Assembly (NCBI GenBank): GCA_000091205.1
Contig: AP006502.2
DNA length: 64,000 nucleotides
Direction: 5' to 3' (one strand)
Origin: Cyanidioschyzon merolae
Taxonomy: Eukaryota
The notes below the pieces were generated by a model. It made no database searches. It saw nothing but the letters and a program-made list of their open reading frames with translations, and was not told the DNA's origin. The first letter of the stretch is position 1. The number at the start of each line of letters is the position of its first letter. Positions 5,379-57,132 of the stretch are shown here, one piece after another. A program made the translations under genes and the position numbers.

Positions 5379-5421
5379 GATGTTCATGTTCATGTTCATG
5401 TTCATGTTCATGTTCATGTTC
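5379..5421. repeat. (ATGTTC)n hexanucleotide microsatellite, ~7 units (3 units in duplicate copy at ~18008-18026)
   Basis: Direct reading: atgttcatgttcatgttcatgttc... Unit number differs between the two duplication copies. Confidence 0.9.
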
Positions 5422-6885: not shown

Positions 6886-6906
6886 GAGCTGAGCTGAGCT
6901 GTCCGA
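6886..6906. repeat. (GAGCT)n microsatellite (expanded to ~11 units at 19488-19546 in copy B); (GT)n at 5934-5960 and (GCTCT)n at 6040-6076 nearby
   Basis: Direct reading of gagctgagctgagctgagctg. Copy B carries a longer array with one variant unit (gagctaagctg). Confidence 0.85.
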
Positions 6907-7339
6907 CACAGGATACGTTCCGGTGGCATCGCGCTTTCTCCCGCGTCCATTGGTGGCCCTTCACCGCTCTTCGTATCATGGGTACGGAAGTTTCAGAAAC
7001 TGTGGCTTTGCCAGTAGAGCTTCATAGCGAACGCTTGGAGACGAATGGAATGACGAGACGACGGTCGTGGAGATCGAGGTCCATAGGTTGCACGTCGGGT
7101 GCACCATGTCCAGACCGAGGACTAGGCAGCGAATGGCCCGTGCATCTGCCCACCGAAGAATGCCTGAATACTACACCTAAGATCCTCTGTCGCATGCTAC
7201 CAGAGACATCATAAAGTCGTCCCGCAACGCTCTTCCAACATGCTGGATACAGTCCATTAGTTGAGTGCCTGCGAGAAAAACAGAGGACGACGATGAAAAC
7301 GGCGTGCTGGTACAGGAGCTCCAGAATGCACTGCTCTGT

Positions 7340-10300
7340 TTATAGGCTCTCGATAGATGCCAAGTACTGGTGTGGGGAGAGCACGCTTGTACCGCCAATT
7401 ACCACGTCAATCTGCAGATGTGTAGCGAGTCCTCGTATCTGCTCCACTTCAAGAGCGGTGACTCCACCAAGTACCACGAACAGGAAGCGATCGTTTCGGT
7501 AACGTTCAGCGGCTCGCTGGAGACGATCCACCAACGCTGCATGCACTCCAGCGTCCTCGGGCAATGTTTCAGTCGCATCTTGCTGCTGCTGCTGCAGTGC
7601 CTCTGTGCCGTCTAAGGCTTCACAAACAGTCGCTTGTGATCGCACGTTCCTTTGTGCACTAGATGGGGGACTTGACGGCGACAGCGCCTCTGCCAGCATG
7701 CCTGCTTCTTCAGCGATACGCAACCTGCTGCGACGTGCACTGCGTTTGACGTCGACATCTGGCGTCGCCCGGTCGACTTGCTGAACGACTCGTGGAGTCG
7801 TTTGCGTGTCGGCTGCCGTTCGCTGTTCGTCGCTTTGATTACATGTTGTCCCTGGACTGTGCATCATATGCGCGTCCTCAGAATGAATACCTTTGCGGGT
7901 GTTCTGGCTGGGCATGGCGTCCAGTTGCATACCGACAGCAGCATCGTGCGTCATATCATGTCCCTGGGTTGCAGGCGTCGTCGTCGTCGTCATCGTCGTC
8001 GTCGCAGCGAGCGGAGCTGTCACGTGAGGCTCGGGCGCTGGCGACGGCGCTCGCGGCTCCACGAGCAACGTAGACAAGAAGAGTTCCGCAGCCGGTGACC
8101 CCAGCGGCTCCTTGTGTTCATGGTCGGACGCAACAGCGCTGTCGTCGTGCCCTTCAGCGACTTCATGTCGTTGTTGAAGATCGAATGCGCCCATATACTG
8201 GAGCAAAATTTGGCTCGCCATCGTCTCCGGTAACAGTAGCGATCCAAGTGACTCGTGTACCAGCACTCGAGCTCGCCGTCTCCGTCGCACGCGGGCGGAG
8301 CGCGTTGCCCACTTGGCGGCACGAAGGCGTTGAAGAAACGCATTCGCCGTTCGTATCAGCGAGTCTTGCGTCTGCAGGTCCAGTCCCGGAATTTTCTGGA
8401 CCAGTTCCCTGACAAGATGTGGGTCCCGGCATCCAAGGAACACCAGCAGTAAGCGCAGCTTGTCGGAGAGCGCATACGTGTCCGCTTCGAGAACCTTTTC
8501 CACGGTACGGCGCATCGTAGCGGAACTGATTCGTGACCCTTGATCCTGCTTGATACCCATGACGATGCACCTTTCCAACGCCGATAAATAGAGTAGATTT
8601 CGTTGTTGCTGTTCTTGGAGACAACGCTCCAGGCTCTTTGCATGCCAGCGCAAAGCGGAAAGCAACTCCAACTGCGCCGGGTCCGCTGCTTGGAGGCTCT
8701 CAAGCGCTCGCTTCAGCGAGGCAAGATCCAGGTCGATACATTCCGCATGAGTCACGCGGTTATCTGAGTCAGGCTCGCTGGATGCGAGGAGCGGCTGCGC
8801 GAGCGCCTGCAGTTTCGCCACAGCGTCCGATAGCGTGTACTGTCGCAGCGCTCGCCAGACCGCATCGTGCTCGGAAGGCCACTGCGGTCGGGCGTTTCCC
8901 GCTGCATCATTCAGTTCCAGAAGCATGCCGCGGTAGGTGTTCACGTGTAGCAGAGGCGTAACGGGGTCCACGGCACGATCCATGAGCAGGAGGTGCAGGG
9001 CACCGCGCCCTGCCACCAAACCTGGACAGAACAGCGGCAAGAGATGCACCGCTGCATACGTCTGAGCCGCCCTGGCAATGCAGGTCGCTTGTTCACTAGC
9101 CGCAGGAGAGGTATGAATCTGAATCCAGGGGGCTTCATTCGCAAAGGTGCCTGCACCCATGCCGTGCAGTAGGGTGCCGATCTGGTGACCGAGTTCCTCC
9201 ATGAGCTGGAACCGCATGGCGCAGGTCTCGGGAGCATCTGCACCGTACAAGAGACCAAATACGTCTTCCCGATTCTCGATACTTACCACTTGTTCCTCGA
9301 TCGGGAAAAAGTCCACATGAATGGGTAGTAAGACGGTGCTTCCGTCAACGTCCGCCCAGGAAATGGCGTGGCGGCGGGGCAGCGGTGCGCTCGGCGAACG
9401 CGTCAACAAGAGCCGCACCGGCACTGGAGCGCTTCGCTTAGCCTCATAGCGCGCCACACTGGTCATCCAGTCGCCCGTTGGAGCCAGAATATAGATTGTT
9501 GGGAGCTCTAGTTCCCGATTTCCGCAACGAGGAAGCTGCTCCAGGAGACATATCCGTGCTGAAGGGAAGCATTCGGCCAAGTTTGGTCCCAGGGCATATT
9601 TCAGGAGCACTGCAGTGCGGGCGTCGAGAACAAGAAGCCAATCTCTTTGCCCAAAGTGCTCCACTTGATCGTGGACAAGGGCGACCAGGAGACGCTGCAC
9701 TCGCTGGACGATGCTGAAAGGTTTTTGAGAATCGTCTATCGACCCGAAGCTCGGCAAACTGAGCATCAAAGGCGACAGGCTGTCCATGGACAGGATCCCC
9801 CCCGGAATACCCCAGCGCGGCTCATTCGCTGCCTCAGACCCGAGACTCGTCGGGCTGAGCGTGCCCTTCTCCGCTGCATCAGCTGCTTGAAATCCGTAGG
9901 CAGCCCCGAAATGCGCTTTTTTCTCGAAGCCAGCTCGTCGCTGCCGTCGTCTGCGCAGAAGGCACCATACCAACAATACACCGAATACCAGAGCGAGTAC
10001 GATCAGCACCGCCACAATGGCAGCTACGGCACCTGTACTGATGCCTTGAGCGGGACCCGCGGTCACAGCGTTGGCCTCGTTTGGATCCTGGACATCAACC
10101 GCGAGCACGTTGTCCGCGCCACAAGATACGGGTCCGAGCGCCGTCAAGTTACTCAAATGGCCCCTGCATACAAAGCGATTCAACGCTGTTTGCCAAGCAT
10201 CTAAAGCACTTGCGCTGATGACGCCCGCATAAGTGGCGATCACTGATCCAGCACGCAGATCGACCAGCACCAGCGGCGGGTCCGACAGAAGCGCTTCGCG

Positions 10301-11371: not shown

Positions 11372-13237
11372 CCCTGCGCGTAAAACTCAATGAAAACAAA
11401 GCGCGTGATACCTGGAAGCGCAAGGCGGATCGCAGAACAGAAATCTCTGTTCATTGTAGGAGAAATAGGCATTCGATCGATCCGAGTATGGACGCGTGGC
11501 CTGGGGAGCAAACAGCGCCGGCTGGTGGCGCCTCGAGGGCCGGTGGCGGCACGTGCCGCTTCCGCGCACAGGGCGGCGCTTTTGTTGTGGCCCGGACCTA
11601 GCGGGGAAGCCGACGGAGATGGTTCATATTTGTCTATTAATGAATAAGAATATGAAGCGGCAGCAGGGCAATCGAGGTCTCCGCGCTCTTGCGCGTACCC
11701 CGCTGGACAGGAAAATGCGTACGCGCGCGCGGCTCGCATCCGATGATCGACACCTGTGATCGATACACATGCGATACTGAACTGCTCGTGCTATCCCTGC
11801 GTTGTGACTTGTCGCAAATTGCAGCGTTAAACGGACAACCTAGAGATCAAAAGTGCATGCATAGGAGATTACGGGTGCATATATAGGTATACGATTTTTG
11901 ATCGATTTTGTTCGGAGTGGGTTCTTCGAAGCTTTTGCGCCTGGGATTCGTTACGTTCCCAGAAACAAGATGACTGGGGGCGGCGCCCACAAATAATGAT
12001 TGGGAAAATAACCAATGTCGCGATGCAGCGTATGCGTCCAAGTCTCCGCTATTCTTCTATCGTTACATGTATCATGTTCAAATCACGTATTCTTCGTGGT
12101 TTCGATCGCACTGTTCTGAAGCGAGTCGTGCACGCAGTAATGCACGTCGCCGGATTGGCCACGAAACCAGAGCTCAACGTCGACTCTCGAAGGCGTTTTT
12201 CACATCGAATCATTTGTCTCGTTCGAAACACAAATCCGCCTCTGTTTCGAGGCATCGACCAATCGGCATTCGCCTGGAGCATAATACCTGTCACGGGATA
12301 TGCTCGCAAGGGCCCCTGTCTCTTCTCTTTGCATTCAAAAAAGGGTACTGGACACGAGCTCCAGTTATCGCAACGATCACTTCCCGTGGACCATAAGCGG
12401 ATGGAAAACTCTCGATCTCTCCTCTAACCTGGATTCCGCTTCCGAAACGTGTTCCATCATGACCAAGATCGCGTTTCATAAATCCCGTCTCGAATGGAAC
12501 ACTGCGCGCTTGCGCTCGCGGAGGATACCCTATTTACTGCGTGAATCGCACAGAAAAAACATGTGATCATGCGATACGACGATGTGTGCGAAAATGCAGG
12601 ACGGTACCGAAAGAAGCCTTCCGTAGTGTCCAGGTACATGCGGCAATCGATGAAGCAAGCGTTCAAGCTGCACTAGCCGCCGATAAAAGAGAGGGCACTT
12701 GTTGCGATGGACATCTGGGACGCCTGACCGCTGCCAAGTGTCACTGCTGCGAGGGACGAACCGAGGTCGCGTTCGAAGAACGTGCGTAGATCACAACTTT
12801 TGCCGGTGCATGAATCGCGTGAACAACACCCAGAAGCAGCGAAATCGGCGACTTGGACGCTACGATCAATACCCCTTGACCGGCATTAACAGAGCTGAAC
12901 AGACAGGAGAGATCGACGTAATCTGAGCCTGAGACCATACGGAGGTAAGGCAGGCAGTCGGAGACGAATCCCTCAAAGACTTTTGTTCATGACTGTGGGA
13001 AGCATCCCAAACTTGAGAATGTACGCTCGAGTTAGACCAGTGGACCTGCACCTTTCGATTCTGATATCGCGAGATGCTCGGTCGAGCAAAGAAGCAGACG
13101 TCGACCGGGGGCTGGCGGGTACATCTATTCAGCCAATCCCAGACGCCTTCCAGCCTTTATTAGGCCGGCCGACTGCTAACGGTTTCAGTTTATCCGGGCA
13201 CACTTCGAACCTCAGAGGCAAACCCCACGAAGCTGGA

Positions 13238-13576
13238 TTACGTCAGGCCGTCGTGTCTCGTCTTCAGCACCACACAGCGTCTGATATTGATAGCAGCGTT
13301 GAAGCCCCGGGTCACGAACTCCATGCGTTTGTTGCCTCTGGTCGAACTCACAAGTGCAAGAATTGCTAGAACTCGTGCCCCATCAGAGCCACTACAGTCT
13401 CGACATTGTCCTGTCGGGCAAGCACCGTGTCCCGCACATCTCCGCTCTTCCTCGTCTTTTGCTTCTACATCACTTGCTCTTCTTCGCTCGATCGTCGGCG
13501 AGAAGAGGATTTTTCTGTTTCCTTTCCAGTACCCGGCGATCTCGGGCCCGCCAGGACCCCTGACTTGCACGTCCAT
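13238..13576 (-). pseudogene. Degenerate Fanzor/TnpB-like nuclease remnant (C-terminal zinc-finger and RuvC-III segment only)
   Basis: ORF ends ...CAGHGACPTGQCRDC..VLAILALVSSTRGNKRMEFVTRGFNAAINIRRCVVLKTRHD. Clearly homologous to the C-terminus of the intact Fanzor-like ORF at 43056-44669 ([38 protein letters not shown]). No RuvC-I or RuvC-II region precedes it; the upstream part is replaced by a minisatellite. Confidence 0.55.
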
Positions 13577-13782
13577 ATCCGCCCCTTGGGTTTCTTACTT
13601 GTCCAAACGAGCACATGTCGAAAACGTCCAGCATAAACCGCAAAAAAAAGCACTTGACGCAACGCACCTGGAGATGGAACGCAATTCAGATGAAAGTCCA
13701 GAACGCACGCTGCGGCACCGGATCGCCGCAAGATCGCAGGCGCGCAGCGTGCACAGACGGCGCCTTTGCCGCTGAGGGTAGC

Positions 13783-14010
13783 GTCCGTCACGAGAAGCGG
13801 CCTGTGCGCGTCTGTCACGAGAAGCGGCCTGTGCGCGTCTGTCACGAGAAGCGGCCTGTGCGCGTCTGTCACGAGAAGCGGCCTGTGCGCGTCTGTCACG
13901 AGAAGCGGCCTGTGCGCGTCTGTCACGAGAAGCGGCCTGTGCGCGTCTGTCACGAGAAGCGGCCTGTGCGCGTCTGTCACGAGAAGCGGCCTGTGCGCGT
14001 CTGTCACAGC
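13783..14010. repeat. 27-bp minisatellite (gtcacgagaagcggcctgtgcgcgtct), ~8 tandem copies
   Basis: Perfect period-27 repeats starting at 13787, 13814, ... 13976. They produce artefactual repetitive ORFs in three frames (13465-14025, 13615-14130, 13766-14116). Confidence 0.9.
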
Positions 14011-14075
14011 TGGGAACGGCTGCACAGCAGTGCTTCGCGCTCACTTGGCTGTTCCAGGAAAGCACATCTGGGGCT

Positions 14076-14366
14076 ATGTCGACGTCAAGGTTGTGTACAA
14101 GTTTCCGAGCGATTAACGGCCGGGGCTTAGGGACTCTCGTTCCACGGCGAGGGCTGCACCAGACAACAGCGAGAAACCGAGCGACGCACGGCGAACACGA
14201 CGAACACCACGATGTGTACGGGTACCTGCACGCTCCGCACATGTACGACTTGAGTCACGCAAGCAAGTGGAAGTACGGCATTGCGACGTTTACATTTGTT
14301 ACAACAGGGCTGGGATTGCCTTTCTTCATGGTATGGTACTCGCAGAAAAAAGCCGGCATATGGTAA
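14076..14366 (+). CDS. Small mitochondrial single-TM protein, cytochrome c oxidase subunit 7C/Cox8-like
   Basis: 96 aa. Arg-rich presequence-like N-terminus, then KWKYGIATFTFVTTGLGLPFFMVWYSQKK, aligning with the COX7C KW-x16-PF-x-V-x6-K transmembrane signature. Assignment made from memory of COX7C only. Confidence 0.4.
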   Translation: MSTSRLCTSFRAINGRGLGTLVPRRGLHQTTARNRATHGEHDEHHDVYGYLHAPHMYDLSHASKWKYGIATFTFVTTGLGLPFFMVWYSQKKAGIW

Positions 14367-14471
14367 GACGGTTTCGATCAAGGTATTGTTGCTGGGGCTG
14401 TTGGCTGCTTCTTGAGGTTGGCGTCTCGTGTCCAACTTGTAAACACTACTTGTTTCTGAGTAACCCACGTT

Positions 14472-15128
14472 TTAGAGATACCGTTGGGGGAAGGAGAAAA
14501 TAGGTTCCATAAGAGAAGCAGCGCTCGGCAAACCAGACGCAGACGTGAGTACGTCGCGCACAAGCAGCGGCGGTTCAAGGCCCAGCGCCTGGGCACGTTC
14601 CCAGCGCTCGAGGCGACTGATACCTACACAAGGGCCGTATCGCACATCGAGGTCAAACATACGTAAAATATCTTCAGCATTTTCGTATCCCTCTGGACTT
14701 GCTGTCAAAGTGGAGGCACCGCCCCCGACTGTCGCTCCCTGCAATGTCGCTGTCGTCAGCGTTCTTGACGGCCTCGGAGCCTTCGTTGGCGTCTCCGGTG
14801 ATAACGTTCCTGACCTTGGTGCCGCCTCCTCAAACGTGCCAGGCTGGTGCGCTTTGTGTAACACGCGCACAGGTGTCGTCGAACCTGGTACGCTTCGTGC
14901 GGAAGCGGTCTGCGCGGCGCCAGACTTGGAAGCGCCACTTAAGGTCGATTTTCGACTCGTTGCTTCCATACGCAGCGTCTGTCTATCATGCTTTTGGTTT
15001 CGTGCGCTAGCCCTTGGAGAGCTGGCAGCTGCCGCGCCACCGGTCGCCTTCGAGACGCCCTCCGAAGTGACGTGCTGCTTGGCAGCGCGGGACCTGCCTC
15101 CTTGCCTCGTTCGCGTCGACACTGGCAT
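14472..15128 (-). CDS. POLD4: DNA polymerase delta subunit 4 (p12/Cdm1)-like protein with a long low-complexity N-terminal extension
   Basis: C-terminus ILRMFDLDVRYGPCVGISRLERWERAQALGLEPP matches the conserved POLD4 motif FDLxxxYGPCxGIxRLxRWxRAxxxGLEPP. The real start may be an internal Met. Confidence 0.5.
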   Translation of the reverse strand: MPVSTRTRQGGRSRAAKQHVTSEGVSKATGGAAAASSPRASARNQKHDRQTLRMEATSRKSTLSGASKSGAAQTASARSVPGSTTPVRVLHKAHQPGTFEEAAPRSGTLSPETPTKAPRPSRTLTTATLQGATVGGGASTLTASPEGYENAEDILRMFDLDVRYGPCVGISRLERWERAQALGLEPPLLVRDVLTSASGLPSAASLMEPIFSFPQRYL

Positions 15129-17349: not shown

Positions 17350-20110
17350 ACTCAGTAATATCGAATAATGCAACACCATTCTCGATTGGCAGTCGCCCAG
17401 GGATACCATTCCGACTACATAAATACGATGTTGCAGACTTGTTGTATTCCTGACCATACCATACTACTGAATTGCTCCAGGCGAGAATCAGATGCCGCCT
17501 CTCTAATGTCCTTGAATTCGTTTATCAAAGGTCGTCAGCGATTCAGGGCAATGCCCACGGCCTGTACGCAACGATCCGCTCCGGGGTCCGTTCGATGCAG
17601 AGCTCATGCGCGTTTCGCTAGCAGAGGCCATCTCCGAACGTTGTTCGACAGACGCTCATATCTCGATCCATAAAGGGCCGTCACACGCTTCGACAGGTAA
17701 ACGCACACAACTGCATGCCGCTCGCTCTCGTTGCTCGCTGCATCGGACGTTATCTCAGCGTACCGTGCAACATCTCGAGCGTCCGGCTCTGTTTCACGCT
17801 CTTCTCCTCTACCGGCATCAGCGCGCAACCGTGCTCTTGATTTCTGCATATTGTCCTGCATCCATCGATAAGCATCGGAAAGAATCGATTCCTTCGCTCG
17901 TTGCACGCTCTCGTAGACGCAGCAGGAATGCAGCCCGAGCGCGTTCCAGCACCTCGAGCGGCAGTGCGCTGCCACCGAACAGCACGACGCATCATGCACT
18001 ATCGGGTTCATGTTCATGTTCATGTTCAAGTCCATGTCCTTGATCAAGTCCTTGAGCGTGTCCACGTCCATGTCCATTTCATGGAAACCGTTGGCCAGTC
18101 TGCGCTTCTTGCCTCCGTGCAGCCGGAGCATCGGCGAGTCCGGTGCGGCTCCATCTAGTGCCTCCATAGATTGTCTGCATGAGCCATTTGGACGCTCATG
18201 TGCTCCGTGAATGCGGCGTTCAGAGAATACCTCAGACCGCTGGATTCAGCGCTCAGAGCGTCAACATGGGTCACGACGCTGTCCTTGCACTCGCTGGTAG
18301 ACCGCTGGGCGCCCGCCATGTCGGGCTCCCGTTCATGCCCTTCCCTGCACAAGCTGCGCAGTTGCATTTGCTCGCCCTGAGGATCTCCGGATACATCCCC
18401 TCGATGTAGAGATACTGCATCTGAGATGACGGTTTCCAGCTGCGGATCCGGGTCCGCCGCAATGTCCGTCTCATCGTCTACCCTGACAGGTTCAAAAAGC
18501 TGCTCGTCGGCTGACGCTGGCCTCGGTTTCATGGAGTCTGTATTTGTGTGTGTGTGCGTGTGCGTATGTGTGCAGACGGACAGTCCGTCGGTGCATCGTC
18601 CCTGTGCATTTCGTCTTGTTTCCTTCGTGTGACAGAGAAACCTTGAACGAGCCTCTGCTCTGCTCTGCTCTGCTCTGCTTGAGGCTGCTCGAGCGATACG
18701 TCGCTGCTCGAAGAGATACCAGACCCTCTTCGCTATCCGCTTCACTTGGATGCCCGGTCATGGTCTGGTTGCTATGCTCTACGTCTGTTTTCCTCCTTGA
18801 GAAGCACACGGACTGGATGGGCACTGTTACTAAGACTCGCCTTCTCTGTGTATGTATCGACGCTCTCTCGGACACGTTTTCGTTACCTTCTTGAACGCGA
18901 GCGTGTCCACGCACTGAAACGTGCCCCTGCGCTCCCTCCTGTGCAAGAGACGCGGCCCAACACGGTAGTTCAGGGCTGGTGGAGGTATCGCAAGCGTCGT
19001 CGAAAAACTCGAGTGTTACGGACGTGACTGACGCACCGCTAGATCCGTGAGCGTCAGAGCGGCTTTTGACAACAGAAAAGACGCTTTCGACTGGAATGGA
19101 CCAAGGGAGAGTAGACTGGCAGGAAGCGCAGCTCTACGCAGTCTCAGCTGCATACTCGGTGACTGCTTCTTGTTGTGACGGGAACCGACGTTTTCTAGCA
19201 GCAGGACAGAAGAGCTTGGGAACGAGGTTCCATGAGCACTTCTCAGAAGATTGAGGTTTTTGAAGGATCCGGGCTGTTCAGCGATCTCGGGGCGACCAGA
19301 CGTGTTACCCGCCGCTAGCTAGGACTGTTGTTGCCGTCGCGCTCGCTTGTCTTGGCTGAACGAACTGCGAATCGCCCCTCTTTAACTACCCGTGCGCAAG
19401 TCTACGCGTTCTCACGAACAAAGTCGCATCGAGTGAGACATGCAGCAGTCTGTCCCACGGTAAGCGATCCCTGCACAATACAAATGCAAAGCTGAGCTGA
19501 GCTGAGCTGAGCTGAGCTGAGCTGAGCTAAGCTGAGCTGAGCTGTCCGACACAGGATACGTTCCGGTGGCATCGCGCTTTCTCCCGTGTCCATTGGTGGC
19601 CCTTCACCGCTCTTCGTATCATGGGTACGGAAGTTTCAGAAACTGTGGCTTCGACAGTAAAGCTTCATAGCGAACGCTTGGAGACGAATGGAACGACGAG
19701 ACGACGGTCGTGGAGATCGAGGTCCATAGGTTGCACGTCGGGTGCACCATGTCCAGACCGAGGACTAGGCAGCGAATGGCCCGTGCATCTGCCCACCGAA
19801 GAATGCCTGAATACTACACCTAAGATCCTCTGTCGCATGCTACCAGAGACATCACAAAGTCGTCCCGCAACGCTCTTCCAACATGCTGGATACAGTCCAT
19901 TAGTTGAGTGCCTGCGAGAAAAACAGAGGACGACGATGAAAACGGCGTGCTGGTACAGGAGCTCCAGAATGCACTGCTCTGTTTATAGGCTCTCGATAGA
20001 TGCCAAGTACTGGTGTGGGGCGAGCACGCTTGTACCGCCAATTACCACGTCAATCTGCAGATGTGTAGCGAGTCCTCGTATCAGCTCCACTTCAAGAGCG
20101 GTGACTCCAC
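17350..20110. repeat. Segmental duplication copy B (direct repeat of ~4725-7468)
   Basis: Same ORF translations as copy A, with microsatellite length differences: (ATGTTC) 3 vs 7 units, (GAGCT) ~11 vs 4 units, (GT)n variants. Ends inside a truncated copy of the Sec1 3' end. Confidence 0.85.
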
Positions 20111-20111
20111 C
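19983..20111 (-). pseudogene. Truncated duplicate of the Sec1/Munc18 gene 3' end (last ~42 codons) carried by duplication copy B
   Basis: ORF 19983-20231 ends WGGVTALEVELIRGLATHLQIDVVIGGTSVLAPHQYLASIESL. This is near-identical to the C-terminus of the 7340-11371 Sec1 ORF (...GGVTALEVEQIRGLATHLQIDVVIGGTSVLSPHQYLASIESL). The upstream part of that ORF is unrelated. Confidence 0.65.
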
Positions 20112-32820: not shown

Positions 32821-33494
32821 GTATTGAGCGCAATCAGTGCATGTTCAGGCAAGATTTGCAGCAAAGCAGCACCACTGGGGAACGAGCCGCTGTCCAACGC
32901 TTTGTGAATGCTTGATCAAACGCTTAAATGGCTCAACGAAATGTCGGTGCATGAAGCTGTAGGTGCAGTGTGCAGACCAGCGAGACTCGAAGGGGATTGT
33001 GGTGGCCTCAGTGCAGTTCGCACTCGCATGCGGGGACCCAGCGAGCCTCTATGGCCTTGGAGCAACTGGTACCAACTCTTTACCATCGAGAATCGTGTCG
33101 TTTTTGTTTTGGTGTTGATTTGGGAACCGGGTACCCGACATATTATCCATGTCTTATGCCTGGAGTAAACAAATTCAGAGCCCGCGTCTACGTAACCAGC
33201 CTAGTGCTACCCGAAAATTCTGACAAGCGTCTTTATCGTGTATCAAGAGTTTCCGCACGAGGTTTCCAATGCGCTTTCGGACGGAGAACCGAAGCGATAG
33301 GCGTTCTGGTAGCTGTCGCGGGGGCATCATCGACATATGCTGAAAGAATAGAAACTCTGCTCTGACTAGCAACTCGATAACAGTTTCGTTTGACCTTGAT
33401 TGTAAGCGCAGAAATGGGGAAAAGTTTCAGTATCTCGGAAAGTTTACCTTTTAGGCGGAAGGTCCCGCGAGCCGGACGAGTCTTCGGGGCTAGC

Positions 33495-33930
33495 TAGTGC
33501 TTCATGCTTCCTCCAGTGGCGGGTTCTTTAAAGAAACCTGAGCTACTCGTCCGTAACGCAATTCAATCTGGGACTAGGAGCGTGTATGCTGCGTCTGGGC
33601 GTCGCCCTGGTCGCAGTGGACGCCCAGTATATCGCACCGTGCCGCCGCAGGCAGTGCGTCTCTCTGCGCAGCTTCCAGGCTCCTAGAATGATTAAGTACT
33701 CCGACTCCGTGTCCGATGAACCACGCCTCGAGCCGACGCCCTCAGTGGTATGCCAAAGCCGTTCTGTCTCCGTGCAGCACCTGCTTCGGCGGTATATAAG
33801 CGCTACGGCGGGTGCTCAAAACAGCTAGTCGGCGCACTATAGAACATACGAAACGACCAGTATATCAGAGAGCATGTATGGGTGATAGAACTTGAAGGTA
33901 GATGCTTCATGATGGACGCTTTCCCGAAAG
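33495..33930. repeat. Dispersed ~435-bp repeat family, copy 1 (partner 45250-45685)
   Basis: Shared blocks: gctactcgtccg.a..gca.ttca.tctgggac; cccagtatatcgc; ccgcaggca; gaatgat..gtactccgac.ccgt.tc; gccgttctgtct.cgtgc; acgaaacgac.a.tatatc.gaga; gatgcttca. Roughly 75-80% identity by eye. The short ORFs 33586-33828 and 45340-45540 are homologous translations of this repeat. Confidence 0.6.
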
Positions 33931-34272
33931 CCATTATCCTTTCCGAATCCTCGGATCCATGGTCAGTCTAAACATTCTCTCATCTGAAAAGAATTCGACA
34001 TACGCTGTGTAAATGTTCAAAGCGAGCACCATATGAACTGGAACGCTACCAATGGCTAGAACGTGTGTCGAAGGAGACCTATTCATCCCGAGGAAGGTCT
34101 CGTGGGGTCTTCTCGGGCGCTCCGGCGCACGCGCCAAGCAAATTTCGAACCTCCGCTTGTGCTTATACAAGCATGGGAGACAAGCACTTCATGAACACCA
34201 CCATGACGAAGCTTTACCGCTACTAAACGAAAGTAGACTGGTTAAACTTGACGAAAGCGTTCAGGTTCCTTT

Positions 34273-36120
34273 GTGCAATTCATCAGACTGCTTACTTTTG
34301 GGTCCCGTCCCAGGTTTACGGCTGCGGAGCGAGCACTTACAAACGGGACTCATCCAGCGCGTATGGCCCCCGAAAGTGCACAAGTAACCAGTTTCGACGC
34401 GTTCCTCCATAGTGTGAGTGCTTGGGAGCACCTTCTCGAGTCTGATGCTCAGGAAACAGCGCAGAAGCAACTGAACGTCCTTCGACGCTCAGTGCCGCGC
34501 CAGCGGACCCCGAACGAACCAACACCCAGAGACGCAGCACACGCCCTCGAGACACTCTGGCTGAAGAAACACGCTGCCCTGTGGTATCGCTGGACGCCGA
34601 CCCTATGTCAGGGAGTGCGAAACGGACGCGCTGCTTCCTGCTCGCTGCTGTGCTTCCTTTTCGACGGGGCGCAGCGTTTCCTGTACCCGCTCTGTGGGAT
34701 GGTACTCAAGGCGCCACGACGTGCGACACGCATGGAAGGAGCACCAAACGCAACCAGCACCATGAAGAGCGCTCGACAGCAGACGTTTGTGCCCATGTCG
34801 GAACGGTATCGGTTGCATCTTCAACTGGTCTACGATACACTGGTCGAAACGATGCAGGCGCAGCTGACCCAAGCTGCAACTGCATTGACCGGTATAGTCA
34901 GCAGGGGAGGTGTGGATTCCAGCACCTCGACCTGTCAGCTCATGCGCTGCCTCGGGGTCGTGGTGCAGAATACGCCATCACGCTGTCTCCCGAGCGCACA
35001 GCTCAAGACCGCCGGGAACCTGCTCTGGGACCAGTACGCGCTTTCACTTGGGCCAGAGCTTGAAACGCTTCGAGCAGCGGCCATCTCCTGTCTGAAAAGT
35101 ATTCATGATCGTCTACAAACCATACCGCCGCTGGAGCAGCTTTTAGCGAATCCGCTGCGCTGGAATGATGCGCACGTGGTTTCGTTCGTGGAAGCCATGC
35201 TAACACTACGCATGCGTCATCTGAGCAGGGTCCAAGAATCCGCACCCGACAGCACTGCCGTCGACGAACTGGTACTTGCGATGGTCGAGCATCATTTTCG
35301 AAGTGCATCGACGAGTCCAGCGCTGCGACTACAAAGCGCCCGTCTCTTGCGCTTGCTGTTGCGCTCGCGGCCATCGATCGCAAGTTCGCGTAACGCACTC
35401 CTGTTCCGCATGTTGAAGGATCCCTTCCACGCGGTACGTGTGGTTGCCATCGCCTGTTTGAGTCAGCCTGGAATTGGAGCCGCAGGCACGCCGCTCTTTC
35501 GAGAGCTCGAGGCGTTAACCGCTGACCCCATTGCATCGATGCGCGCCGCTGCGTGTACCGCATTAGGGCGGCTCGCGGCGGATCCAGGCGCGTTCATCCC
35601 TCAAACAGAACCTACGATCATTCTCGATAACGACTGGAATGCATTGAAAGGGCGTGCGATGGATCTTCTACTGAAGCGACTCGAAGAAGATCCAAATGTC
35701 CATGTTCGAGCAGCTGCCGCCTACTCGTTGAGCCAGTTCTGCACGCATGCAGAACGCTTGGCGGCGCGACTCCCCGAGAGGATCATCGAATTGGCGATTG
35801 ATGAACTTCGACGTGCACCATATTCGAGTCAAGCAAGCGCGTACTGTCGCCTTCTGGGTGCGTCCGTCCCGTCCGAAGCACAGCGAACACAGATCGTTGT
35901 GGTGATCGGGGATATTGTGCAGGGTGCACGTCGAAAGGCGCTGCGCCAACAGGCGATCCTGGCGCTGGCGAAGCATGTACGACCTGCCGACGGGGCGGCA
36001 CGCTGGTCGCTTGCACAGAAGCCGGACAACGAACTGGACCTGGATCAGTGTGGACGAAACGCTGCGCCAGCGGAAACGCCACATCAGGATGCGGTTGCTT
36101 CGAATCGGACGGGAGCGTAG
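34273..36120 (+). CDS. HEAT/ARM-repeat protein (function unassigned)
   Basis: 615 aa. Repeated HEAT-like units (DPFHAVRVVAIACLSQ, DPIASMRAAACTALGRLA, DPNVHVRAAAAYSLSQF). No catalytic motif. Confidence 0.45.
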   Translation: MQFIRLLTFGSRPRFTAAERALTNGTHPARMAPESAQVTSFDAFLHSVSAWEHLLESDAQETAQKQLNVLRRSVPRQRTPNEPTPRDAAHALETLWLKKHAALWYRWTPTLCQGVRNGRAASCSLLCFLFDGAQRFLYPLCGMVLKAPRRATRMEGAPNATSTMKSARQQTFVPMSERYRLHLQLVYDTLVETMQAQLTQAATALTGIVSRGGVDSSTSTCQLMRCLGVVVQNTPSRCLPSAQLKTAGNLLWDQYALSLGPELETLRAAAISCLKSIHDRLQTIPPLEQLLANPLRWNDAHVVSFVEAMLTLRMRHLSRVQESAPDSTAVDELVLAMVEHHFRSASTSPALRLQSARLLRLLLRSRPSIASSRNALLFRMLKDPFHAVRVVAIACLSQPGIGAAGTPLFRELEALTADPIASMRAAACTALGRLAADPGAFIPQTEPTIILDNDWNALKGRAMDLLLKRLEEDPNVHVRAAAAYSLSQFCTHAERLAARLPERIIELAIDELRRAPYSSQASAYCRLLGASVPSEAQRTQIVVVIGDIVQGARRKALRQQAILALAKHVRPADGAARWSLAQKPDNELDLDQCGRNAAPAETPHQDAVASNRTGA

Positions 36121-42896: not shown

Positions 42897-43055
42897 CAGG
42901 TAGAGTGGGAGCCTGACGGGCTGTTTGCCGCACCAAGCGACGTTCTAAACTCGAACGACGTCGGGCGTGTACAGTAGTGGCGAACCGTACGCCCTGGACA
43001 AGAAGTCTTCAACCGAGGTGCAGACGCCTCCCCGTCTTTTTGGACCGGCTACCTA

Positions 43056-44669
43056 CTACTGATTCCAATTTTTCTCATATAATTCAACTTTTAGAGGTTG
43101 TCTACTAAAGTTCTCTCTTGTCCATTCTGGAGGTCTTTTCTCCAGCACCGCACATTTCCCTATATTGACAGCGGCGTTAACGTCACGGTTCACAAACTCC
43201 ATCCGTTTCTTGCCATCACTGGTTGTACTTCCTAATGCAAGTAGTCCACGAACTTTCGACATCCTTTCCATATGCTCTTCCGTCAGCGGTCCATACCTTT
43301 TTATATCCTCAGGGCTCCTCTGGCACTTTTCTATCCCGACCCCTTGAAGTGTGCACGCCACTTCATGGTGTGTATACGATGTGCGAACCTCACCTACAAG
43401 TATTGTAACGAAACGCCTTGCGCACTCCGTGTACGTTCTCGTCGTTGGAGCTGGTGTAGTTCCTTTTTGGGTCATCCAGTGTCCTGCTCCGTATGTTGCT
43501 ACGAGCCTCTGACCTTCATTCCCCTTCAAGGCGCTCAACTCATTGAAAAAATTCGCGAACGCCCCCTGCTTCCCACAATACAAATTCATTCGCAAACGAG
43601 CCCACCGGGGCTTGGCATACTCCTCCCACAGCGCATCCCAATGAGCGACGCGAACTTCCATAAACTCCCGAAAAGCTTTAAAATCCGCTCCTCGGCTTGT
43701 CACCTCGCTCAAAGCTTCCAGGTGCTCGTTCATTCCTGAATTCCACGTCTCTATTTTCTTCCTTGCATTCATGATTCCCGATTCTCGATAGTATCTCGCT
43801 CTCGAGAACCTCAAAAGACGCATGTCTTTCTGACGTAAGTTACCATCAGTGCCATCTTTCGCACGCTTCGGTGCTGCGATGGTTATGATATTTGTGCTTC
43901 CTGGGTCCGCACCAACGGCAAATTCGTTATCCTGCACTTTCTGCGTCTCAGGACCCGCCTCTTTTTTTTCTTCATGCTTTACCGCGTCAACGACGAAGTC
44001 GTTATCCTCCACCTCTTGCGTCGCAGGATCTGCCTCCTTCTCATCTTCATCCTTCGTCACGTCAACGACGAGGTCGTTATCCTGTACTTTCTGCATCGCA
44101 GGTTCCGCATCCTTCCCATCTTCATCCTTCGTCACGTCAACGACGAGGTCGTTATCCTGTACTTTCTGCATCGCAGGTTCCGCCTCCTTCTCATCTTCAT
44201 GGTTCGCCGAGGGCGGAACTGGACGATCTGTCTTCAACTGCCGATAGTGTACACACAACGCTACTCCATCGGTTTCGATCATCCTAGTGAACAACTTTTG
44301 TTTGCTCACTTTGAGACGTTTGAAATCGAAGATATTCTTCCAGTACGCCTCCTGGTTTTCACCGGAGAACTCCTTCCTGCTAACATTGAACTCCAGACTG
44401 ATCTCCTTAAAGATGCCGTAAAGGACGCCGGAGGCGATACTCAAAAAATGTGACTTGATGTTGTACATTGGAACCACGTTGAAGCGCTTACCCATCAGGA
44501 ACGCCTTCCGTCTCTCCCACTCTTTATTTGTCTCCTCACGCAGCTTCATCTCTGCCTTGCGTTCGAGCTCTCGGTCCAGAAACACGAAATAGCGCAGGAC
44601 GAGGCAATAGTATCTTTCCTTATGTTTTTTCAACTCTGATATCTTGTCTGTTGGATTCGCCAACCCCAA
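43056..44669 (-). CDS. Fanzor/TnpB-like RNA-guided RuvC-fold endonuclease (eukaryotic OMEGA-type nuclease)
   Basis: 537 aa. RuvC-I-like [16 protein letters not shown] (Asp); Fanzor-typical segment [15 protein letters not shown]...W after RuvC-I; RuvC-II/zinc-finger region [15 protein letters not shown]...C; Ruv[25 protein letters not shown] (the DxNAAxNI hallmark of TnpB/Cas12/Fanzor). The N-terminal part carries ~3.7 in-frame 25-aa tandem repeats. Confidence 0.7.
43919..44198. repeat. In-frame 75-bp tandem repeat (~3.7 units) inside the Fanzor-like CDS
   Basis: Plus-strand units gtcaacgacgaggtcgttatcctgtactttctgcatcgcaggttccgc.tcctt..catcttcatccttcgtcac. They encode [28 protein letters not shown]-type repeats just upstream of the RuvC-I motif. 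Confidence 0.85.
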
Positions 44670-45249
44670 GACTGCACGATGCTCTCGTATAACCGCACGG
44701 ATGACAGAAGCTTCATTCGTGCTCCTGCGTGACGCCTTCTCATAGACGAATTCGATCTCCTGCTCATGCTGGCGATCGTTCGTGATGCCATTGATAATCG
44801 TCTATATCCTCTTGGGAGAGATGCCCGGGTAGAGTGCAAACACGGCGCGTATCATGAGACGTTCGAGGTTCATTGTCAAATCGTTCATCAGGTTTCTGAG
44901 GTACTTTTCGCCCCGTAGTTGTAAATATTCCCGTCATCCTTGTATCGAGTACCGTTGGGGCGGGATTCTGCGTAATTTTAGTGCAGGGCATGCACTCGCT
45001 CATTTCTCCTCGACGTTTCCCTCGTACCAAGCATCAGGTGACGAATATAGGTCTTGTCGAAGAACTCGTCCGGAACCTCGACCGTTTCCATGTGCGTCAC
45101 GTCGCGATACATCTCCCTTACCAATTGCATCAGTCCTGACGACGCCTTTACAATACTCTTGGAGTACGAATCGACACGGTTTCTGATCGCATCTCGCAAC
45201 TTTTCCTTGTACGGATCCTTGATATGTGCAAGAAGGTTCCCCAGGCTTG

Positions 45250-45685
45250 TGGTTCATGCTCCCCCATTGTCTAGTGTTATCGTGAGATCTAAGCTACTCG
45301 TCCGCAGTGCAGTTCATTCTGGGACCGTGAACGGGATCATTGGGCGTAACGCTGGTCCCAGTTGACTCCCAGTATATCGCTTCACTGCCGCAGGCAATGA
45401 GTCTATCTTTACAGTTTGCAGGCTCCCAGAATAATGATGTACTCCGACCCCGTATCGAGTGGGTCACCCCTCGAGCCGGCGCCATCTGTGGTACGGCAAC
45501 GCCGTTCTGTCTGCGTGCGGCGACCGCATCGGCGCTTTAGGCGCCATTGCGCACTACCAGGGCAAGCAATCGGCACACGATTGAACGTACGAAACGACGA
45601 TTATATCCGAGAAGGAGTACGGATAATGTTACTTGGAAGTAGGGTATGGATCGATGGATGCTTCACCGCGCACTGAAACAAAGAA
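45250..45685. repeat. Dispersed ~435-bp repeat family, copy 2 (partner 33495-33930)
   Basis: See copy 1. Lies ~600 bp 5' of the Fanzor-like ORF start on the same side. Confidence 0.6.
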
Positions 45686-47749
45686 CAACGAAAAGAAAAG
45701 GCGTACAATCGGAGAAGGTTGGCCTCTGAAAGTGTGTTGTCAACTAAAAAAACTTCCATGCGCCAAGCAAGGCGATGCGGTAAGTTCGTTCGGACACAGC
45801 TACGCATTGATCAAGGTGGCAAGAGAGAATGGTGCTGTAGCCGGTTCGTGTGCGGAAGTTGCGTTCGGTCTGGTCCCTGCGGATTTGAGGACAGTGTCCC
45901 TTCATTACCGCTCGTAGGGACGGTGTGGAAACTTCACTTGATGTGGCTTGATTTATCGAATTTCTTAGAGAACATCCGGTAGGGAGTGGATTGATTACAA
46001 GTCAGTCTTGTAGAGAGCGTTGGCTACGTTCTGTTTTGGGTATGTGTATGTGATGTACAGGATAGGGAATACTGGGCATGTGCTTCATTCACTTGCTGAC
46101 CGTAAAATGACTAATTCGTAAACTTCATACCTGTTTTGCATGCGAGCACTAAGATCTTCACATCATTCCGCAACGTGTCTGCGATCGACCGAAAGCATGC
46201 TTTCAAGTACCTGCATGAGAAACAAAATAAAACGGATTGCGCCGGCACACGAGGTCCAGAGTTCACTGGTACGCGTATCGAGAGAACACAACGCAGGCGC
46301 TGTACCAAGGAGATTAAAATGGAACATTGACCTGCGTTCTCTGTCCTTACGTTTTGGTGATTCGCAAGTTTCTTATCCGATCTACAGCCTCGATATTCCA
46401 AGTGCAGCAATAGGGGATTCCACATTCACATCTCGTTCTAGGATTTTCGGCGGTGGTTTCGAAGTGGCTGCATCGACGCAGCCCCGCTCGAATGCATTCG
46501 ATCACCGGCATCACGGGGATTTGTGGCGTCCTCTCAAATAGATTCCTACAGAACCGATACGATTGTCTATTTCATGGGTGCGAGCCTCGGTTCTTTCCCT
46601 GACTTTACGTACAGGACGCACAAACCATGCATTCTTCAAGATTTCGATCTCACTCTTTCAAGGCAACACCTAAGCAGAACGACATGCTTCCCGAGGGTGA
46701 TGAGAAAAAGAATATGGCTTCGTCCTTTGAGTACTTGTTCACAAGCTCCTGCCAAAAGTTCATGGAACTTCTTGCGTCAAATAATCGATTCCATTCGAAC
46801 GACAAAGCCCATTTTCATCGTTGCAAAAGAGGAACCAGTATTCAACAGCAGCATGCTAATTTACGAGAGGTATACGCCAAGAGGCCCTTGTCTTCAAGCT
46901 TTGCACTAGAGAAAAGTCCTGGACTCGCTGCGCACGCATTATAGCAATCGCTACCACTAGAGGCCGAGTCACCAATTCTGGAAAAGGGAACGTAAGCGGA
47001 TTGCAATGCCTCGACTTGATCTCCGACCTGGATTTTCCGGACGACACTCGTTTCATCATTGACAAAATCGCGTTCCATGAAGCCTTAATCGACAGGAACA
47101 GCTCACGCTTGCTTGCGCAACGGACAGGGTAATTGTCAATGGCCTCACCGAGGAAGAGCCCATGGATGTAGGGTACGACACCTTTGTCTCGCGGACCTAT
47201 GACGGCACTGAGGGTACCGTCTGCACCCGTCATGCGCACGCATCGAGCGATGAAGCCAGCGTTCGCGCGCTCCAAGACGGCTCCCTGAGGCGGACGGCTG
47301 CTGGTCTTATGCGAACCCCTGAGAACAATCAAGTGCCACCGCTGCGAAGGGCGCACAGAAGCTGTATTCAAAGACGCTTGAAGTGTCAAGCGAAGCCTAG
47401 ATCGCAATGACCATGAGTGCATGAAACGCGTCGACAACGCCGGGAATCGGCGTGATCAGAAGTTCAACGCTGCCGTGTACTTCCTTGGGCCTGTGACAAC
47501 GCCACTGGAGGATACAGAGACATCGGCATATTCAGAGCCGGAGCTTAGAGCGCGAGGAAACGGAAGCAGTCACAGAAACAGCGTGCCGCGCTTCGTGTCG
47601 GTGAGAAACGGAAGAAACCAAAACTGTAGAGAGCACATCCGAACTCGCAAACCAGACCTTTTCTATTCATGTCTGACACGAGTGTAACTGCCTGTTTGTG
47701 CTGACCCTGCACGTGTCGCGCTCGAGTCGCTCACGAAAAAGGGAATTTG

Positions 47750-47823
47750 TATCGGCGGCGCGACTCGAACGCGCGATCTTGTGCGTGTGAAGCACACGTC
47801 ATAACCAACTAGACCACGCCGAC
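47750..47823 (-). tRNA. tRNA-Val (anticodon CAC)
   Basis: Minus-strand sequence folds by hand into a cloverleaf: GTCGGCG TG GTCT AGTTGGTTA TGAC G TGTGC TTCACAC GCACA AGATC GCGCG TTCGAGT CGCGC CGCCGAT A. 7-bp acceptor stem with a G1:U72 wobble; D-loop AGTTGGTTA; anticodon loop TTCACAC with U33 and A37 (anticodon CAC); perfect 5-bp T-stem with TTCGAGT loop; discriminator A. Closely resembles eukaryotic tRNA-Val. Confidence 0.75.
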
Positions 47824-54959: not shown

Positions 54960-57132
54960 CCGCAGAAGACATCCCTGGCAACGCTGGATGCTTCAGGGAA
55001 AATCGTTGCATCGCTTCCACAAGCTCTGGACATGTTGCAGGACGTATGGTTGCGGCCTCATGACGTGAGGGTGCTGCATGTCTCGATCCGGCTTTATCGG
55101 TCATCGGATGGAAAGAACCGTCATGTCGACGCGTTTCTCATGTAGATCCTGGCGCGTCATGCGAAAATCAGCCAGCGCAGTCGATCTGTGACTCCCGCGT
55201 GTGCCTGCAACCGAGCCAAACATGGAAGTGAGCAGTCGTGGGGATCTCGCTTGCAGCCCGCGAGTCTGAGGAGCACAAGCATCGCGGCAACTGGGGGCGT
55301 TTCTCTGCTTCCAACACCGTTCTATGGCGTAAGATGGCGTCTATATTCAGCAAGATCGAATCATGGAACACTATAATCGTCTTCCGTCTGCGAAGGGATA
55401 TCGCTGCCGGGGCATCTGTAGGGTGCTCCCAACTTGCTCGATTGCCGAATTCGAACGACATCCGTGTCAGGAACCGGGCGAAAATCCATTGTCGTTTCTA
55501 ATCAGGCAAGTGGGTTTTCACTACAGGTCTGTAACGCTTCAGCAGCATGCCCACATGAAGCGTTCAACGATTACGTCGAAAGTTCACTCTCCAGAAAAGC
55601 AGCAGGACGCTCCAGAAGCACGAGTGTTCACCGGGTGCTGATCGAGGCGCTCAAGTCTCGGTGCAGAGCGTGCGCACGCGCTGACGTATGCTCCACTGAA
55701 AGCGATCCCTGTAAAAAGCGTCTTGTCTCGGTCCGCGGCCATTTTCCATCCGGAGAGAAGAGACAGGAGCCTCCCGCAACATATCCCGTGAGATGTACCG
55801 AGCAGCTGTCGAATGCCGTTTCGCGACTGGCCAGAAAGCGAGAAGGATATGTCACGCAAAGGGAATCGATTAGTTTCCATGAGAAGCTCAGTGGACGTTC
55901 GTCATGAGCTTGTGAAAATGTATTCAGTGGACGACGTCGAGCATTTTCTTTCGTCTATTCAGCGTCGCGAATTGCTGCGCCTCACGAGTTACCTTGAACC
56001 AGAACGATCGAAAACTTGAAAAATGCGCAAACTGTGTGCGCTACACGTAACAAATGGAGCAAGTTGGAGGCTGGTGCGTATGAACTGCATGATAAGATCG
56101 GTTATTTTACAAACCCTCGTTTGAGGGCGTTGCAAATCATCTTGATTCCCCTGACGTCACGAATTCCACCAGCGAAACGTCGATTGATGCAATCCGAATA
56201 GACGACAGAGAATCCCAAAGCTGCGTGTGAGTTCTCAACACCTTACGAGTGCACATCGAACGTCTAGACTCGAAGTCTAAATAAAGCATACAAAAATGTC
56301 GACAGGCACAAACAGAGCGAGCAGCCCAGTGATTGATTTTAATCTGACACGGGTATAGCGCTGCTGCATCTCCGATGACGAGTCGCCTTGTCGCCGCTCC
56401 CGAGACTCCGCGTCCATGATCGTCAAAAGGCGATGTGAAAGCCCTGCAGCTTTGTGGATTGATTCGGAGCGATCCACGCAAGTTGCGTACACGACATGAA
56501 TCTAGGTGCATATGTAGCATCAGCGTTCTCATCGCTAGCTCCACTGCATTTCATATGTGCACCGATTCGGTGGTCGATGCGAAGCGACTGGCTGTACCTC
56601 GAGATGGACTCAGAATGCGGTATTAAGAGCGCGACGTTCGTTCCGCCCGCGAGCGCCTCGCGGTTTTCTGCAGCGAGTCCAATAAGCGGCTTTGGCTTCG
56701 GGTTAGCAGGCACTCGAAAATTGCGTGAATCCAAGACGGGAACGTGGTTCAGCGCGAATGCAATGCGAGAATTATCGATATGGAGGCGTGATGATGCTAC
56801 GATGATGCGCGAACTTTTCTGGAATGCAACATCGCACTGCGACCACACAGGTGCCAATGAATGCAACGCGCGAATTATCGATAGGGAGGCATCATAATGC
56901 GGCCACGATGCGCGAACTTTTCTTGAATGCAACATAGCAATGCGTCCGCACGAATTCCACGCCGCACAACTTCCGCCCTTGACGTCGCTGTGCACCAAAA
57001 TCGGCAAAATCAATAGCACAGAGAGATCGTCAGTGGTCGTGCCCGCCATGCGAGCAATGCAGTGATGAAACTTCTCAAGAAGAGACGGGATACACTCGCT
57101 TCCAATCTCGTCGGAGAAGTGGAAAACGCTTC

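Follow-up and report, generated by a model that had tools for sequence, protein, structure and literature searches.

We describe here a short dispersed repeat, designated R, that occurs twice in a 64,000-nucleotide stretch of the Cyanidioschyzon merolae genome (contig AP006502.2 of GenBank assembly GCA_000091205.1; this whole stretch is referred to below as the window), once as a solitary copy and once beside a gene for a Fanzor-like nuclease. R is probably a family of non-coding, non-autonomous retroposons of approximately 650 bp that depends on a long interspersed nuclear element (LINE) for its mobility, and it very probably corresponds to the repeat catalogued as TE-N2_CMe. We favor this reading because the repeat has discrete ends, an A-rich 3' end, target-site duplications, and a 3' tail that is common to a reverse-transcriptase element whose copies are truncated at the 5' end. 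In the mechanism that we propose, an R transcript would carry the ~280-nt 3' tail of a LINE-like element of ~4.2 kb, including a conserved hairpin and a terminal motif; the LINE proteins would recognize this tail, nick the chromosome, and copy the R RNA into the nick—that is, by target-primed reverse transcription—with an A-rich 3' end and a target-site duplication of 11–14 bp as the outcome. The first copy in the window would then be a complete solo insertion of this origin, and the second would be part of the composite element named Fanzor1 CMe-1A by Bao and Jurka, in which R would stand head-to-head with a Fanzor unit of ~2.75 kb.

By self-BLASTN of the window, positions 33493–33921 and 45245–45663, which run in the same direction, form a 432-column alignment of 70.6% identity (E=7e-47), and matching conserved blocks between the two copies were also recovered by MAFFT and by a repeat finder (families D9, D13, and D14). 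The two related, same-orientation copies reported by the first-pass annotation, which was made from the sequence alone, are thus real; its coordinates captured the part that the copies share but not their full extent, which comparison with paralogues places at 33343–33994 and 45245–45752. Copy 1 (also labelled W1; 33343..33994, plus strand), with termini aligned to those of independent copies, is a complete 652-bp R and a solo insertion, probably of TE-N2_CMe; it lies, as had been proposed, between a GNAT/NAA10-like gene that ends at 32820 and a HEAT-repeat gene at 34273–36120. Copy 2 (45245..45752, plus strand), delimited by BLASTN and tail alignment, is a 5'-deleted R that comprises element positions ~151–650 with a LINE-type variant of the tail. 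It covers element positions 151–579 of copy 1 in BLASTN, lacks the first ~150 bp, and terminates in ...GTTGTCAACTAAAAAAAC. The proposal that copy 2 adjoins the 5' side of the Fanzor gene was also correct: a gap of 9 bp separates it from the 5' limit of Fanzor homology (45235/45236), and because the gene is on the minus strand, copy 2 is placed upstream and reads in the opposite (antisense) direction. Orthologues of copy 2 at 99.4–99.6% identity were found at five metagenome loci (L038, L041, L082, L083, and L095; L-numbers denote fetched metagenome loci), and copy 1 shows full-length identity of 84–85% to the paralogues L088 and L072b. A protein-coding R was considered and rejected, since the window copies differ by insertions or deletions of 1, 2, and 6 nt and their short open reading frames (ORFs) do not correspond. 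The NAA10-like protein and a 629-amino-acid (aa) RING protein of the window are exactly those of C. merolae 10D (BAM83311.1 and BAM83315.1, respectively), and contigs near-identical to the window are present in several Joint Genome Institute (JGI) metagenomes.

Related contigs from hot-spring metagenomes stood in for a genome-wide search. A core pattern of 24 specified bases, built on alignment columns that did not vary among four diverged copies, matched 87 stretches, every one in one of the few JGI metagenomes in which genes of the window also occur, with 22 and 25 matches in the two best-assembled single metagenomes; a scan of viral contigs with the same pattern gave no match. BLASTN over the fetched loci yielded 119 R instances in about 45 clusters. 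R is therefore not confined to the two window copies, nor does it lack a link to nuclease genes, as it abuts Fanzor in several paralogues; the restricted distribution against which the mobile-element interpretation had originally been set does not apply.

Independent copies with unrelated flanks have a common 5' end, AAAGAACAGAAAC..., and a common 3' end, ...AAACGTTTTGTCATCNGAAAAAAA. Copies that start with AAAGAACAGAAAC and end with ...GTCATCNGAAAAAAA approximately 650 bp further on include W1, L088, L072a, L072b, L039, L090, L037a, L047b, and L052; the first bases of copy 1, AAAGAATAGAAAC, line up with the common start AAAGAACAGAAAC, and its last, ...TCTCATCTGAAAAGAAT, with the common end ...AAACGTTTTGTCATCNGAAAAAAA. 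Copy 1 is bracketed by a 13-bp target-site duplication, the left member of which, tcgacatatgctg (33330..33342), abuts the first element base as read from the sequence, while the right member, tcgacatacgctg (33995..34007), is identical to it at 12 of 13 positions and abuts the A-rich tail GAAAAGAAT; the duplicated target sequence at 33330 is TCGACATAYGCTG. Duplications also flank L088 (11 of 11 positions identical) and L072a (6 bp). No remnant of the Fanzor unit was found left of copy 1; a 15-nt stretch there that resembles the unit was rejected, since its letters belong in part to the target-site duplication and otherwise to unique flanking DNA.

The partner that may mobilize R was recognized through its tail. 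A segment of ~1.27 kb upstream of many Fanzor units closes with the R tail (the last ~300 bp) and encodes the C-terminal part of an ORF, longer relatives of which carry the reverse-transcriptase domain PF00078 (RVT_1). Pfam gave no hit for the ~250-aa ORF upstream of Fanzor itself, and its reverse-transcriptase nature is assigned because the longer homologues carry PF00078. An earlier view of this ~1.27-kb block as an invertible segment or long terminal inverted repeat was dropped, as the block is the 3' part of the LINE and its 5' ends differ between copies. We took L102 1120–5358 (4239 bp, ~4.2 kb) as the LINE reference; L102, L103, L104, and L050 are collinear longer copies, and a putative remnant of an N-terminal motif resembling apurinic/apyrimidinic endonuclease was noticed in L102. 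All mapped LINE copies end at reference positions 4233–4239, and their 5' ends vary (1, 134, 2984, 3120, 3169, 3486, 3687, and 3961). Solo truncated copies have duplications that abut both ends (L029, 11/11; L073, 13/13; L080, 13/14; L018, 13/14). This truncation series, together with the duplications, is the signature of a non-long-terminal-repeat (non-LTR) retrotransposon that inserts by target-primed reverse transcription, and the LINE thus combines a reverse-transcriptase ORF, a common 3' end with variable 5' truncation, and target-site duplications. An internally deleted derivative of ~1.18 kb that keeps both termini (~620 bp of 5' part and ~560 bp of 3' part) was also observed beside Fanzor in either orientation (L019 1795–2982, L049 2301–3482, and L052 12208–13384).

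The last ~280 bp of R are common to this LINE. In copy 1, the 3' tail (33711..33994, plus strand) is homologous to the LINE 3' untranslated end, with LINE positions 3946–4133 matching window positions 33711–33900 in BLASTN. Two tail variants exist and converge on one terminal stretch of ~25 nt, which holds the motif AAACGTTTTGTC-N3-5-A(n); the terminal motif of the copy 1 tail also stands at the LINE end in L104. Given this common tail, mobilization of R in trans by the LINE would be a plausible route, with recognition of the tail presumably taking place at the RNA level.

A conserved RNA stem in the tail is suggested by base-pair changes in aligned sequences. Three hairpins were named from a trimmed alignment of the same related sequences and then counted on a tool-made alignment, in which 83% of cells were paired, versus 32–39% with the partners slid, and 53 double-change cells were seen, versus 22.5±3.8 in shuffles (0/500). 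Most of the double-sided changes fall in the candidate helix at 33778..33814 (plus strand; columns 106–113 with 135–142 of alignment A3), in which 82% of cells are paired and both partners have changed in five of the eight pairs (CG/UA 21:13, UG/AU 23:10, AU/GC 25:6). The loop of this hairpin contains the string tataagcgc (33795–33803), which the first-pass annotation had singled out as TATA-like. The string is no conserved promoter box: it results from a 2-nt insertion that copy 1 has in common with a small number of closely related copies (L052, L056, and L039), and most other R copies carry GGTATAGGCGC or GGTTAAGGTGC at that position.

Conserved blocks and some double-sided hairpin changes are also what one would expect of a structured non-coding RNA (ncRNA) gene family, either a Fanzor guide RNA (ωRNA) or a host ncRNA, that is kept for its RNA function and is not mobile. 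We consider this explanation, which had been raised at the outset, highly improbable. Rfam scans of the whole window at the gathering threshold and of both copies at E≤10 matched no family in either copy and returned nothing but a chance SNORD48 hit (E=0.76). R copies behave as insertions: they are only ~70% identical among themselves and occupy unrelated sites with duplications, and many have no Fanzor within reach. An ωRNA would, moreover, be expected to be encoded next to the 3' end of the nuclease ORF, or to overlap that end, on the same strand; R lies 5' of Fanzor and antisense to it, and a conserved ωRNA-like region occupies the 3' end of the ORF instead, in line with known systems.

Several points weigh against the LINE-dependent retroposon reading of R and should be set beside the evidence above. 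The copy census was drawn from the metagenomic relatives as a proxy for the 10D genome, and a clear target-site duplication was seen in only three of the approximately ten solo R copies examined. No head of the RNA polymerase III (Pol III) type (tRNA, 5S, or 7SL) was found on R with ARAGORN or with Rfam at E≤10. With respect to the origin of the head, the 5' ~370 bp of R match the LINE in only one internal block of 25–32 bp, at collinear spacing. De novo folding with RNAalifold of a gapped tail alignment of 44 sequences gave essentially no consensus structure, and the covariation described above is only suggestive because the hairpins were derived from the same sequences and the copies are related. 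Finally, the correspondence of R to TE-N2_CMe was drawn by description (genome, size, copy number, and position).

The head deserves separate mention, since a motif similar to the first ~9 nt of R occurs close to the 5' end of the LINE. Homology of the whole 5' head to the LINE was tried and rejected, as its support is limited to this terminal motif and the short internal block; R may nevertheless be a strongly diverged internal-deletion derivative of the LINE.

With regard to class, R has the features of a non-autonomous retroposon in the broad sense, namely non-coding sequence, discrete ends, an A-rich 3' end, and duplications of variable sequence, with several copies lacking a duplication. 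The suggestion that it is SINE-like (a short interspersed nuclear element, SINE) was borne out by its non-coding body, discrete ends, duplications, and reverse-transcriptase-element tail, but not by its 5' part: the LINE-homologous 3' tail of a strict SINE is present, whereas a tRNA, 5S, or 7SL head with an internal Pol III promoter is not, and ARAGORN detected no tRNA-like sequence in either copy. R is therefore not a SINE in the strict sense. Pairs of a SINE and a LINE with a common 3' tail are known from eel (UnaSINE1 and UnaL2) and from tortoise (a SINE and a CR1-like LINE). By analogy, R would resemble these SINEs in being short and non-coding, in carrying the tail of a partner LINE, in its duplications, and in its presumed mobilization in trans; it differs from them in the absence of a tRNA, 5S, or 7SL head and in its length, 650 bp being toward the upper limit for a SINE.

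The repeat family and its Fanzor link are, in all likelihood, already on record. C. merolae holds ~150 copies of a ~3-kb element, Fanzor1 CMe-1A, which are ~80% identical to their consensus, lack terminal inverted repeats, and had their target-site duplications left undetermined (Bao and Jurka, Mobile DNA 2013, PMC3627910). The 5' 635 bp of CMe-1A are 95% identical to the whole of TE-N2_CMe (635 bp, ~70 copies, Repbase), and both elements were listed as of unknown class (PMC3627910). Because genome, size, copy number, and position match, R is very probably TE-N2_CMe: both belong to the C. merolae genome, the published unit measures ~635 bp and R 652 bp, copies number in the tens at roughly 70–85% identity, terminal inverted repeats are absent, and a ~3-kb Fanzor1 element has the repeat as its 5' part (the L013 composite measures 3.25 kb). 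In contrast to the published elements, which were left unclassified and for which no duplications could be detected, R bears 11–13-bp duplications, an A-rich end, and the tail of a reverse-transcriptase element; it also stands in either orientation to Fanzor, and longer LINE pieces can fill its position there.

The Fanzor1 unit of the window (42943..45235, minus strand; probably the body of CMe-1A) is 5'-truncated and corresponds, by paralogue alignment, to positions 438–2741 of a 2754-bp reference unit. It has ~82% DNA identity to the paralogues L012, L013, and L014, and its boundary at 45235/45236 is sharp; the full unit of ~2.75 kb has a sharp 5' end, CGCGCTCGGTGAGCGCA..., with a small hairpin. 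The longest remaining Fanzor/TnpB-like ORF (537 aa; 43056..44669, minus strand) contains the RuvC-like motif GADPGSTN and a second such motif, and its protein has 119 relatives with PF26935 in the protein collection, mostly paralogues of 65–80% identity from the same metagenomes. Residues 37–143 of paralogue P0002 match 45235–44915 and residues 135–750 match 44942–43107, which places a frame change near 44915–44942. Because homology to longer paralogues runs on to 45235 in another frame, the ORF of the window, as judged from sequence, is likely a pseudogene. Relative to the L013-type arrangement, the window also lacks ~595 bp across the junction with copy 2 (R 1–150 and Fanzor ~1–437), which a single deletion would account for. 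With this junction loss and the broken frame, the R/Fanzor locus of the window is a relic. The Fanzor ORF also has an internal tandem array (43907–44206) of three to four 75-bp repeats that encode an acidic 25-aa unit, the copy number of which differs among paralogues (e.g., P0007 versus P0006).

Beyond the stop codon lies a conserved non-coding region (42929..43100, minus strand; ~40 paralogue 3' ends listed) with a long-range stem, CAGTAGTRG...CCACTACTG, and a terminal hairpin after it, the complementary arms being visible in the sequence. In TnpB systems of the IS200/IS605–IS607 kind and in characterized Fanzor elements, the ωRNA and the nuclease gene overlap at the gene's 3' end. The Fanzor unit here resembles these in its conserved, structured 3' region, and it is this region, rather than R, that appears to occupy the expected ωRNA position; R differs in its location, which is 5' of the gene and antisense to it, and in being independently mobile, and the nuclease has no TnpA-like or other transposase with it. 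LINE and R both have at their extreme 3' end a motif, GGA(A/G)ACGTTTTGTC, that many Fanzor units carry ~70–100 nt short of their own 3' terminus (GTTGGAGACGTTTTGTCTAGGGCG), among them L012, L013, and the window (~42990–43010, minus strand); its occurrence in both could be due to chance, since both have small palindromes, or could mark a shared recognition element. The Logan contig L011, the only contig with the exact 10D RING protein, stops 70 bp upstream of that gene; the break sits at the Fanzor 3' end (window ~42900–43000), as expected if a multi-copy Fanzor unit breaks short-read assemblies.

The association of R with Fanzor recurs across the family. The repeat lay upstream of the gene in all three paralogue Fanzor loci that were fetched for comparison, and the Fanzor units of the window, L013/14, L071, L062/89, L093/16, and L085 have R directly against their 5' end; such contact recurs in at least five independent paralogue clusters. 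The first-pass annotation had offered R as a terminal region of the Fanzor-bearing element with additional solo copies, and as a description this agrees both with these junctions and with the match to CMe-1A and TE-N2_CMe. Its mechanistic version, in which R is the left end of a DNA-type Fanzor transposon (IS200/IS605-like or unclassified) and the solo copies are deletion derivatives mobilized by an unknown transposase, is in our view unlikely. It would explain the constant junction in diverged paralogues (R position 1, ~10 nt of filler, and Fanzor 1–4 in L013/14, L071, L062/89, and L093/16) and the published CMe-1A consensus, which takes in R as its 5' 635 bp (PMC3627910), and the hairpins near both ends of the Fanzor unit recall IS200/IS605 ends. 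The solo copy 1, however, has no remnant of a Fanzor right end, and R makes insertions of its own, with 11–13-bp duplications and an A-rich tail that belongs to a reverse-transcriptase element with classic 5' truncation and duplications. R and LINE pieces adjoin Fanzor in either orientation, and some lie on its downstream side. A repeat search found no terminal inverted repeats in R, and no transposase ORF was found in any composite, so that neither paired ends, nor a transposase, nor a fixed orientation, as in cut-and-paste or IS200/605-type elements, is seen.

The junctions themselves are of two kinds. In head-to-tail junctions, the A-run of a LINE or R is followed by Fanzor position 1–2, with differing LINE truncation points; in head-to-head junctions, to which that of copy 2 belongs, position 1 of R, or position 1 or ~2986 of the LINE, faces Fanzor 1–28 across a few filler bases. 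These joins raise the tentative possibility, which we hold to be rather doubtful at present, that the Fanzor unit is itself copied from RNA by the LINE machinery and that the R/Fanzor and LINE/Fanzor composites, including that at 42943–45752, are retrotransposition chimeras. Head-to-head composites would then arise from two complementary DNAs (cDNAs) primed on both strands of one staggered break (two-RNA twin priming), and head-to-tail composites from read-through transcripts or from template switching by the reverse transcriptase. Consistent with such copying, the 3' A-run of LINE or R joins Fanzor 1–2 with LINE 5' ends at 3 (an internally deleted copy), 134, 3120, and 3169, and, in the opposite orientation, Fanzor 1–28 is faced by LINE 1 (L102, L106, L107, and L019), by LINE 2984–2988 (L012 and L086), or by R 1. 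A 5'-truncated LINE or R also directly follows the Fanzor 3' end (L033 and L048/L086), L109 contains a head-to-head Fanzor pair with overlapping coordinates (396–2720 and 136–2736), Fanzor fragments that retain the 3' end outnumber those that retain the 5' end, the flanks beyond the composites are unrelated, and a transposase is absent from the composites.

Mammalian genomes offer a parallel in the twin-priming inversions of L1, in 3' transduction, and in chimeric U6/L1 retrocopies. The composites described here resemble these in being joined exactly at RNA termini, head-to-head or head-to-tail, with variable 5' truncation of the LINE; they differ in that no duplications were seen around the Fanzor composites and in that the partner, a protein-coding Fanzor unit, lacks a poly(A) end, and the parallel serves as a lead only. 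Against RNA copying of Fanzor stand the absence of target-site duplications around the eight Fanzor-containing composites inspected, which agrees with Bao and Jurka, who found none either, and the lack of an A-rich 3' end on the Fanzor unit. Several junction classes may stem from few events, so that their independence is uncertain, and nested insertion with deletion in transposon-rich DNA, or double-strand-break repair, could mimic the composites. A conserved target sequence beyond the LINE/R end of the composites was also looked for and rejected, the flanks being unrelated. One locus upstream of an SMC gene differs in content between metagenomic strains (L107/L108 versus L109): one strain has a long inverted LINE facing Fanzor, and the other has a second Fanzor unit head-to-head, both members of the L109 pair being truncated at the 5' end.

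As a finding, R itself is ordinary, being a catalogued repeat family of a well-studied small genome whose Fanzor1 link was published in 2013. The retroposon class of R and the hint of RNA-mediated Fanzor movement may be additions to the published record, as may the likely autonomous partner, the duplications, and the occupancy of the Fanzor-flanking position in either orientation or by longer LINE pieces. A previously classless family would thereby be placed among LINE-dependent retroposons, with its likely autonomous partner named. The exact end-to-end joins of LINE or R with Fanzor in both orientations raise the possibility that the ~150 transposase-less Fanzor copies spread by reverse transcription; if true, a Fanzor family would have been propagated by a non-LTR retrotransposon instead of riding on a DNA transposon, which bears on the question of what Fanzor nucleases do for their carrier elements.

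Other repeats and element fragments were observed elsewhere in the window. In a second patch of element debris, a C-terminal piece of a diverged Fanzor (13223–13378, minus strand; 57% aa identity) still has a recognizable part of the conserved 3' region behind it; a weak reverse-transcriptase-like match lies near it (14142–14702, minus strand; 24% identity, E=7e-4), and a 27-bp tandem array at 13754–14050 separates the two. Positions 4720–7468 and 17350–20111 form a direct duplication of ~2.75 kb with 97% identity, 12.6 kb apart, that holds (GTTCAT)n and (AGCTG)n microsatellites of unequal length between the copies; the ORFs inside it are of low complexity, and TnpB-like tblastn matches to such ORFs (23–27% identity, at ~5024–5935 and 17639–18496) were rejected as probably compositional. 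A weak dispersed repeat (67–72%) has three copies at 12230–12513, 46629–47112, and 56026–55754 (minus strand), one of them ~900 bp beyond copy 2; it occurs also in L015, L026, L044, L077, and L029 and is probably another old element family. A tRNA-Val(CAC) gene lies at 47749–47823 (minus strand), ~2 kb beyond copy 2, and a pair of 93-bp direct repeats with 84% identity, 103 bp apart, occupies 56756–56951.

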